Source of the DNA: Podarcis gaigeae
Lineage: Eukaryota
Strand: one strand, 5' to 3'
Assembly: GCA_964106915.2 (NCBI GenBank)
Contig: OZ066915.1
DNA: 64,000 nt
The translations under genes and the position numbers were made by a program. Every line of letters starts with the position of its first letter. Position 1 is the stretch's first letter. Below the pieces are notes generated by a model that had not been told where the DNA came from, ran no database searches, and saw nothing but the letters and a program-made list of their open reading frames with translations. Shown here in pieces: positions 54,201-57,200 of the stretch.

Positions 54201-57200
54201 AGTAGGGGTTGAAGTTACCCTTAGTAAGCTGACAGTAGCTGACTTCAGGCTCCATTTTTGGGTGGAATCAGCTGTGGTAACTCAGTAGCACAGCATATTT
54301 GAGCTGGTTTACTTTTGGTAACGGTTAGCTGATTGGTTGTGCACTGGCGAGGGAGCCTACCTGTCACCATCAGGAGTGCCTTTAAAGATTCCCCATTATA
54401 CACTGGCAGTATGCCTTTGCCTGCTCCTCATCTGATGAAGCATTTGTGGGACTGTGGTTTGGGGGAAATGGCCTTGCAGACCAAATTGGAACCCCTGCCA
54501 GACGTAATTAGATCTATGGGCTGGAGGTTCCCCATACCTACCCTAAATGGATGTGCCTATTAAAACAGAGCTATGTAGGCAGCACAGACCATTCAACAAA
54601 CTGTTCTGATAGCATTTCGTGCACAATCTGCTATTGATTGTGCTGGTCAACACAGTCATGTTTCTAATCTTAGTTTCCATGCCTGAAGTCATCTGTGCGT
54701 ATATTCTGCTTTAAAATCTACCTCCAAGAGCGTGCACACTTGCAAACTTGCAAATCGGCATTCAAAACCAACTCTAGCAGCTATATGTTCTATATGTTCA
54801 GTGTGGTGTAGTGGTTAAGAGCGGTGGACTCGTATAATCTGGTAAACCAGGCTCGCATCTCCGCTCCTCCACATGCAGCTGCTGGGTGACCTTGGGTGGC
54901 TAGTCACACTTCCCTGAAGTCTCTCAGCCCCACTCACCTCACAGAGTGTTTGTTGTGGGGCAGGAAGGGAAAGGAGAATGTTAGCCGCTTTGAGACTCCT
55001 TAGGGTAGTGATAAAGCGAGATATCAAATCCAAACTCTTCTTCTTCTTGATGTTGAGGAGGAAATGAGCTCCGTTACTTTTAATTCATTCCACTGTGCCC
55101 ATATAAACAGGTTTAGGGATTGCAGATGAGTCTACGTAGTAACATATAGTACATTAAATAGGCTGCCTTGTAATTAGCATTCAGATGTTCCACAAAGGAG
55201 CGCAAATGCTTCCTCTTTTTTATGTCCTAATTGCTGCTAGTGCAAACAAATGGTCGATTTGTTCCGAGGAAGTTGTGAAGTCTTATCTGGATCTTTCCCT
55301 AGGCTTAACTTCATTATAGGGTTGCATGATTTCTACAAAACATACCAAATTCCATCAGTTATCTTAATAAAAGCTTTGCATCTCAAACATTTTGCCCCGC
55401 TGCCTTTCTGGAAAAGGGGGGGGGGTGTCCTATGGAAAGTATATTTTTTGTTGCACAAGCCCCGTTTTTAAAGGTAATGTGCATTGGATGGATATGGAAT
55501 CATTAAATGCAACAGATCAGGGTCACTGCAGACCCAGCAAGAATCTTCATCACTTTTTGCTCACCATGCAGACCTGGCCATATGTGCTAGAACTGGGATT
55601 GGAAACTTGTGGTCCTGCGGATGTTAATGGACTCCCAACGCCCATCACCCCAAGCTAGCATGGGCAACGATCAGGGATGATGGGAGTCATTGTCCAGACA
55701 CAGGTTCTTTATCCCCCTGTACTGGTAATAGTACAACAGACAAACATGACAGCTACTAGCATTGTTCTCTGCATCAGATAGTGGATGGTCTTAAACCTAT
55801 GCACACTTGGGAGTAAGTACCATTGAACTCAGTAGAAACTGTTTATTTGGTGCATTGTAACCTGGTTTTCAGATGCAATTTATTTATAAACTGTATGTAA
55901 TTACATGAGGAATATTTTCCCCCTTTTCACTAGATGGCACTGATGCATTATCAGCTTACTAGCACTCCTCCCCCTTTTTAAAATGCAGATATTATTCTCA
56001 ATCCAGAGAGATATGTGAGGTCTGCATGTGCAGTGGAGCTTTTTCTGTCTTATTCCATGCAGCAGCTTTGTCTGAAGCAAGCAGTTATTTAAATTTATGC
56101 TAGTTTTTTTTTTAAAAACCAAACAAACAGCAGCTCATTTATTGTGGGGTGGGAGAGCCTGCTCTTGGGTGGGGTAGCCTTGTGCTTGCACCCACATGAA
56201 GGGAACTCTGGTTTGTGGCCACTGCACATGCAACAGATATATCAGGTGCACCTGGAAAATAAAAATCTTGCACCATAGTTCTAAAGCCCCAAAGGCCTTA
56301 AATATTTCTGCCTGGTGTTTTTAGTGCATTTGAGAAAAGCCAGTAGTAATACTTAGCTATTCCAGGCAGAGAAGTTATAGGGTCAGCCTTTTTTTTTGGG
56401 TTGGGAAGCCCACTTACATGAACCTGGACCTTGCCCATCAAGACCTTCCTGATTGCAACTTACCTTGCAGGGAAGGCGGCTGTCCCTCCCAGATAATTCC
56501 TCCAGAGTGTGCGCTGGATCAGAGTGGTGGCCCAGGCAGACCTTCCTTTTATTGGGAAGGAGCCCAAGATGGATGCCTTCATCATGAGTTCGAAAGGTAA
56601 ACTTGTTCTTATCTGTATGCTTATGGTTCTGCTAGTAAGCGTATTGCGCAAGAGAAGACAGTATGCTGGATATACACAGTGTACCATCGTTTCAAGGCCA
56701 CGAGACCCAAACCCATGATGGCTTTCTTTGGAAGCGACAGCCATATGGATTGGTGTAGGAGGAACTAGCAGAACCGCGATCTTCACAGACAAGGACAAGT
56801 TTAACTTTCTGCTATACCCCTATACCAATCCGAAACTTTGAAACCTGATGCATTCAATTTTGTTTCAATCGAATGGAGTTTTTGACGGGCATGTGCGACT
56901 CACAGGGATATATGGCCCCAGTCTCTTTCTCTCCATATGGCCTACCTCACAGGGTTGTTGTTAGATTAATTACTAGAAAAGAATCACTGCTGTCATCCTG
57001 GCAAAGTTCATGCGGGTAACAGTTTGGGACAGGTTGTGTGCAGAGCTGCAGTATGAGATAGGATGGATGCATCTGTGACTCTGGGGCGTGTGGTTCCTTA
57101 TGACAATCTCTCACGTGCCCATGGCTCCAAAGAGGTTGACAAGCCCTCACTGTAGCCATTGCGCCACACTGTGATATTTCATAACTAAAGGAATAGATAC

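Follow-up and report, generated by a model that had tools for sequence, protein, structure and literature searches.

The 64-kb stretch of DNA analysed here (the window) encodes on its plus strand an FCS zinc finger (45339-45560) and, from 60617 onwards, MBT repeats, both recognised by Pfam in a scan of 241 frames (129 plus, 112 minus) of 37-64 kb, and we take the host gene to be MBTD1. In its plus-strand intron 50614-58994, placed by the exon edges, sits a segment (56585-56902), found once within the window, to which a preliminary description had assigned long and mutually exclusive stems. Every stem it named is present, position for position.

Pairing potential and fold strength

Stem A joins 56592-56636 to 56764-56809 on the plus strand (duplex energy -46.5 kcal/mol) and is built from a 23-bp outer part, an 8x9 internal loop with its 8-nt side in the 5' arm, and a 13-bp inner part. 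It contains one G-U pair and one A-C mismatch as well as a G-A mismatch at 56597/56804 that had gone unreported. Its 3' arm is a shared strand in which 56766-56773 and 56807-56809 also take part in hairpin B, and 56785-56803 form the loop of that hairpin. Hairpin B pairs 56746-56773 with 56807-56832 through an outer helix B1 of 14 bp and an inner helix B2 of 8 bp; the 13-bp and 8-bp arms previously claimed for it were both found. Stem C, which goes with hairpin B in fold B, pairs 56685-56697 with 56836-56850, and the TTGAAAC it includes (56838-56844) can alternatively pair with 56862-56868, both partners being there as proposed. A small ATGGCT/AGCCAT hairpin (D, 56718-56744), likewise recovered, is common to both folds with a pair probability of 0.999. 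The sequence is able to pair either as stem A or as hairpin B with stem C, two alternatives that use one common strand.

The minimum free energy of the segment is -103 kcal/mol, far below that of shuffled sequences (z -5.67 on the plus and -5.76 on the minus strand; none of 100 shuffles on either strand as low), so the suspicion that its complementarity exceeds chance survived the shuffle comparison proposed for it. Among 199 non-overlapping 318-nt tiles of the window, which served as a multiple-testing control with 8 shuffles each, the segment ranks second by fold z, behind a tile with a 29-bp inverted repeat at about 32286-32573. It holds three helices of at least 13 bp, when 20 of 2000 shuffles had one such helix and none had two. 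The stems are real and beyond chance. Also as described, there are 12 CpGs at an observed/expected ratio of 0.80 vs 0.27 across the window; elsewhere in the window this richness is exceeded by CpG islands and by a number of repeat copies.

The segment was found in 20 public runs under 6 organism labels from 8 studies, none of them recorded as RNA (the best-matching run may be the source sample), and in the whole-genome run X2 one 805-nt contig spans 56389-57193 with 0 differences. These recoveries dispose of the concern that it might be an assembly artefact. Bins 56401-56855 in this run lie at the depth of that single contig with nothing else at 80% likeness, and repeat scraps flanking the segment, which have a lacertid look, attract hundreds of contigs there. 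A high-copy transposable element, raised earlier as an explanation of the stems, does not agree with a single contig on the core, and the segment is apparently real single-copy DNA; the count derives from one contig run whose filter may drop records, so it offers support rather than proof. At the right edge, outside the conserved folds, contigs pile up in bins 56856-57037 over an old interspersed-repeat fragment (56856-56970, no strand assigned) that we assume to be SINE-like. Run X13 has a gap in its contigs over 55855-56855, which is not evidence of absence.

Apparent conservation in distant lineages and close relatives

Using one plus-strand frame as a protein query, we retrieved the Logan ORF P0001 together with four cluster mates (P0001-P0005, one 90% cluster), and a second protein search returned P0006. 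P0001-P0005 run through all three plus frames of the window in order over 56418-56880 and P0006 does so over 56418-56693. Such ordered frame switching marks the Logan ORFs as fortuitous translations of DNA that is collinear with the window and belongs to two lineages further removed; none of them has protein family membership, and P0004 found no Pfam, atlas or viral relative. In least-change alignments, where only residue-altering changes are visible and synonymous ones stay hidden in the translations, P0001-P0005 differ from the window by 35-39 substitutions, 2 deletions and 4 insertions over 56418-56880, and P0006 by 19 substitutions and 3 deletions over 56418-56693. Because the DNA is collinear with the left flank and single-copy, the homologs are presumably orthologous. 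Half of the CpGs of the segment (6/12) are altered in P0004, which shows that CpG richness is not fixed as such and cannot serve to prove that an insertion is young.

Helices of the rival folds both appear to be spared in these lineages. P0004 carries 7 visible changes at 143 helix positions vs 18 at 116 unpaired ones, or 6.6% per visible site in helices vs about 21% in spacers (binomial p 0.005, visibility-corrected), under a helix mask chosen after the alignment was seen; none of 258 shifted masks scored as low. A mask taken from the coordinates of the preliminary description gave 10/161 vs 21/135 (p 0.012) and four mechanical masks gave p 0.019, 0.38, 0.20 and 0.023, which makes the helix signal mask-dependent. 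By fold, changed sites in P0004 number 2 of 61 fold-A-only, 3 of 59 fold-B-only and 24 of 165 positions in neither fold, the fold-B figure coming from one lineage; P0006 stops where stem C may be changed. All four P0004 indels fall outside helices or at a helix edge, among them a 3-nt insertion at the edge of hairpin D shared by P0001-P0005. Helix B1 (28 positions) shows no visible change in P0004. The stem A 5' arm has 2 in P0004 (one keeps a G-U pair, one is in the loop) and 1, in the loop, in P0006. The alternative TTGAAAC partner at 56862-56868 has 2 changed sites and an insertion in P0004.

Within the P0004 helices 5 of the 7 changes keep pairs. They comprise a two-sided G-C to A-U replacement at 56689/56844 in stem C, which we read as compensatory, and three swaps of a Watson-Crick pair for a G-U pair or the reverse. 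U-A becomes U-G at 56848 in the 3' arm of stem C, and in P0002 and P0003 U-G becomes U-A at 56832 in the 3' arm of hairpin B. Changes at 56766 and 56770 in P0001-P0005 weaken the inner part of stem A and helix B2 alike; they break pairs in both folds barring hidden synonymous repair, and 56770 is beyond such repair. One-sided changes favour the sense strand by 4 to 1, a ratio that is not significant.

Conservation is highest to the left of the segment, in a block that the boundaries first drawn for it omit. This plus-strand block (56418-56563) is unstructured on its own (fold z -0.36). In P0004 it has a single visible change and, at 56531, a 1-nt indel, and in P0006 it has 6 visible changes; across 56491-56561 there is none in either, the indel aside. 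That indel breaks the frame and so argues against coding. With both lineages taken over 56418-56684, the left block and stem A arm have 10 changes at 382 sites vs 22 at 152 in the spacers (p 1e-6, for blocks set post hoc). From these back-read translations we infer that the helices of both folds and the block are kept by purifying selection.

Several smaller observations fall in this region. At 56457-56466, without visible change in P0004 or P0006, the minus strand reads as a consensus splice donor and the plus strand as branch-point-like, and the site could pair over 7 bp with 56594-56600. The invariant block also contains a small hairpin (56541-56560) whose loop holds a poly(A) signal for the minus strand. 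Across 56564-56690 the branch of the window has about 11 visible changes of its own, vs none in 56418-56563, and most go from A/T to G/C in this unrooted comparison; local acceleration is possible, or biased gene conversion that would have built some of the CpGs.

In close relatives, 31-mers are retained above the expectation from flank divergence (P 0.0006 in organism E; 0.0003 and 0.03 in two runs of F), with runs ranked by their share of words, which favours low divergence. Contigs of X15 and X16, at depth 3-5 and guessed to be RNA, were used for sequence differences alone: X15 has 6 in 396 nt of the stretch vs 19 in 370 nt of flank (p 0.007), and X16, with 9 in 349 vs 33 in 915 (p 0.48), shows no significant deficit. 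Two of the 6 and three of the 9 differences were listed individually, and two of these (56846, 56874) create CpGs.

A candidate poison exon under competing folds

The left block may form an alternative exon ending at 56596. On the plus strand it contains acceptor-like sites that would open an exon at 56471, 56493 or 56506, with 10-12 pyrimidines in 17 vs 12-15 for the real acceptors of the gene; two of the acceptors are weakened in single homologs (at 56452 in P0001, at 56485 and 56490 in P0006). The putative exon 56471-56596, or one of its shorter forms, would end at a donor-like site, AAG/GTAAAC (56594-56602, plus strand, cut 56596/7), that is buried in stem A. The +1 G of this site stays unpaired, being the G in the G-A mismatch, and, with the exception of it and partly of the +2 U, flanking bases are paired at p 0.99-1.0. 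The site is one of 4 MAG/GTRA matches in the 8.4-kb intron and has no visible change in P0004 or P0006. It scores 6/9 against the consensus vs 7-8/9 for the four real donors of the gene, and 38 sites in the intron reach 6/9.

With this donor, a premature stop arises in all six combinations of three acceptors and two alleles, and in 16 of 18 across all three donors, a result of low specificity as most random pseudo-exons would give one too. A splice joint at the candidate sites was seen in 0 of 4 runs, whose contigs lose rare forms and are uninformative either way, and among 21 candidates none was an annotated MBTD1 isoform with the 56506-frame peptide, a weak test. A 49-codon plus-strand ORF (56569-56718), which use of the 56506 acceptor would join in frame to MBTD1, encodes a 15-residue hydrophobic run followed by RKRR and has a purine-rich motif upstream; its start codon is altered in 6 of 6 homologs, and it found no Pfam, atlas or viral relative. 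A bacterial relative was rejected, since the one locus among 370 candidates matches by chance over 9 residues and shows no similarity in its DNA. A true membrane protein in the homologs was rejected as well: their ORF lengths vary from 91 to 212, and in the window the reading frame is interrupted with the block still conserved.

Together with the conservation described above, these features lead us to favour, tentatively, a reading in which the element is an old cis-acting structure of the host pre-mRNA whose stem A buries the predicted donor of a likely poison exon. That it is a functional RNA-level element of some kind is, to our minds, probable. During transcription stem A may form while the 3' arms of hairpin B and stem C have yet to be synthesised; it is predicted to come first and to mask the donor, so that exon skipping would be the default. 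Were the downstream arms (56807-56850) to take over the shared strand, the donor could open and the exon be included, and a protein, a helicase, editing or elongation speed might shift the balance. Inclusion might then send the mRNA to nonsense-mediated decay.

Energetics bear on how far such an exchange can be pushed. At 37 C the ensemble of fold B lies 8.2 kcal/mol above that of fold A, and with the P0004 reading 5.0 above it, so the two are not close in energy as expected of a switch, and the gap runs from 7.4 to 12.4 kcal/mol across 42-15 C with no crossing, which means that in silico a shift in temperature is not enough to exchange the folds. A nearest-neighbour model that leaves out pseudoknots and proteins predicts a fold B population of about 0. 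Any switch would therefore depend on a protein, on editing, on kinetics or on a partial pseudoknot. The proposal of a structured RNA in MBTD1 pre-mRNA with competing folds is upheld in part, as helices of both folds appear to be conserved in distant lineages, and its two-state behaviour is not borne out by the predicted populations. A bolder version, a riboswitch-like two-fold RNA of a reptile chromatin-reader gene that uses strand displacement via the hairpin B loop to toggle the poison exon, senses a condition and possibly derives from domesticated DIRS-like termini, strikes us as rather improbable, and this holds jointly for what it might sense (elongation speed, temperature via a protein, or A-to-I editing at donor +5 in stem A). 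Vertebrate pre-mRNAs rarely contain natural two-state RNA switches, and the structure-controlled poison exons known so far mostly rely on a single pairing. If true, a compact element with both rival folds conserved, one of them over a donor, would amount to testable conformational control of unproductive splicing; even without switching it would be a conserved intronic RNA structure. The literature on MBTD1 introns and RNA structure, on poison exons and nonsense-mediated decay, and on lizards, searched with subscription journals largely outside, returned no description of it.

The closest parallels we see are the poison exons of BRD2 (3b) and BRD3 (5b), which are controlled by RNA pairings (PMC10789245). 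As depicted there, these too lie in chromatin-reader genes and, as MBTD1 appears to, place an exon-sized conserved non-coding intronic block beside conserved complementary regions, lose conservation where pairing ends and bring in a premature stop upon inclusion. In the same account the BRD2/BRD3 pairing flanks the exon and loops it out, whereas stem A would cover the donor itself, and no second, exclusive helix set is spared as it appears to be in MBTD1; their splicing is proven, in contrast to that of the candidate MBTD1 exon. Human MBTD1 itself has a conserved cryptic poison exon, '4b' (chr17:51219466-51219582, 117 nt), with a maximum inclusion of 0.173 in nerve and a rise on XRN1 depletion (PMC11632617). 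It shares gene and poison class with our candidate, and its entry in the supplement of that paper reports no structure. An MBTD1 splicing event is also mentioned, without detail, in PMC5029452. In the window, 46218-46334 is an AG/GT-bounded open stretch 3' of the FCS exon, with no stop and a weak donor, whose 117 nt equal '4b' in length, probably by coincidence. By name and exon count we presume that human '4b' belongs to a different intron from the one treated here. Competing intronic pairings of the docker/selector type act in mutually exclusive splicing. Like them, the MBTD1 element has one strand common to two alternative helices; unlike them, it lacks duplicated exons and its competition is local, within 260 nt.

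Alternative functions and origin of the element

The same conservation data would also fit a functional RNA structure with another job, namely an intronic ncRNA of about 450 nt or a retention, editing or protein-binding element that acts without exon inclusion. Conservation runs continuously from 56418 into the stems, as such an RNA would have it, and an imperfect stem of 45 bp that carries an A-C mismatch would make a fitting ADAR substrate. The A of that mismatch (56611), however, varies in 2 of 5 cluster members, and the donor-like site lies exactly at the start of stem A. The Rfam scan suggested at the outset was run and yielded no family (0 matches at gathering score, three chance matches at E up to 10), and neither a covariance-model match to snoRNA, scaRNA or other Rfam ncRNA nor box motifs appeared on the host strand. 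There is no box C, Sm site or telomerase template on the plus strand, and hammerhead, hairpin, HDV, twister and pistol cores are absent from both strands by Rfam and core motifs. With the missing box C, Sm site, telomerase template, Rfam match and plus-strand ribozyme core counted against it, another job for the RNA seems to us possible and somewhat doubtful.

Selection might instead act on DNA. An enhancer or antisense exon could have settled on an old local inverted duplication, in which case the stems would be a by-product and conservation would protect protein-binding motifs or the minus-strand donor at 56464. In keeping with this, folding is equal on both strands, the most conserved block is unstructured and holds the minus-strand consensus donor along with the poly(A) signal, CpG retention suits an unmethylated element, and the helix signal varies with the mask. 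What speaks against a DNA-level element is that both arms of each helix appear spared and the loops between them change, that one compensatory and four wobble-consistent changes occur, and that neither distant lineage retains the C/EBP-like palindrome at 56644. We consider it unlikely.

The preliminary description also entertained a DIRS-like terminus. Read as what remains of the right terminus of a minus-strand tyrosine-recombinase retroelement, preserved as such or co-opted afterwards, the segment has some of the expected layout, for 56747-56831 resembles two overlapping complementary regions (27 and 61 nt) that meet at AAG, and 153 nt further on comes an end in CTT, with sizes that fit published vertebrate ones. 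Set against DIRS1, this gives a 3-nt AAG junction complementary to the CTT end, as expected for NTT ends, and regions of 27 and 61 nt whose sum falls within the expected 85-130 nt. Anolis AcDIRS1 starts with CTT, has an AAG junction and carries regions of 40-58 nt (Table 3 of PMC3266345). Interlocking inverted repeats, junction and similar sizes are shared with DIRS1-like termini as portrayed in PMC3266345 and 10.1101/2021.08.05.455354, and the four-copy motif, strict inverted repeats, coding domains and copy family of such termini are not. Specifically, the motif of at least 10 nt expected in both repeats and both complementary regions is absent from the putative terminus in the window and in both homologs, the 13-mer is present only twice, and the arms are 80% rather than about 100% complementary. 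We found no long strict inverted repeat, no RT, RNase H or recombinase domain in the 241 frames of 37-64 kb, and a single contig on the core (one run) with no dispersed copies. Since three defining features of DIRS fail, we regard such a terminus as improbable. LTR, MITE and retrocopy origins were rejected too, with a target-site duplication of at most 3 nt and no poly(A) tail or plus-strand signal.

An earlier suggestion of recent insertion, be it DIRS-like, viral or horizontally acquired, conflicts with collinear DNA that includes the left flank in two diverged lineages. BLASTN against phages and plasmids found none, pattern scans gave 0 and 0 viral and 0 prokaryote-genome hits, and 7 metagenome loci each match the pattern alone. 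A 119-codon minus frame had 0 of 11 candidates confirmed and 0 relatives in 1.84 billion representatives, and 0 of 9 window ORFs occurred in the protein collection. A recent foreign insertion (a viral terminus, a viroid-like RNA or a bacterial one, for instance the mRNA of a type I toxin encoded by the 49-codon ORF) could draw on CpG retention and on a weak match between the hydrophobic stretch and PHROG (E 0.0036) but is largely refuted, and to us very improbable, given collinearity in two lineages with spacers about 20% diverged, the altered start codon in every homolog, database searches that were blank or chance, and no ribozyme core. Neither a DIRS terminus nor a recent foreign element is supported, and a recent foreign insertion is unlikely.

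Other features of the window are more ordinary. Repeat copy pairs (24170-24496/46421-46759, 83% alike; 32032-32276/54799-55048, 91% alike) and a CpG-rich palindromic element at 60186-60410 account for several other CpG peaks, and the CpG islands at about 21000-22200 and 34700-37100 are both probably promoters. The inverted repeat that gives the strongest fold of the 199 tiles has its 29-bp arms at 32286-32314 and about 32545-32573, about 230 nt apart, and resembles the two termini of a small, non-autonomous DNA transposon.
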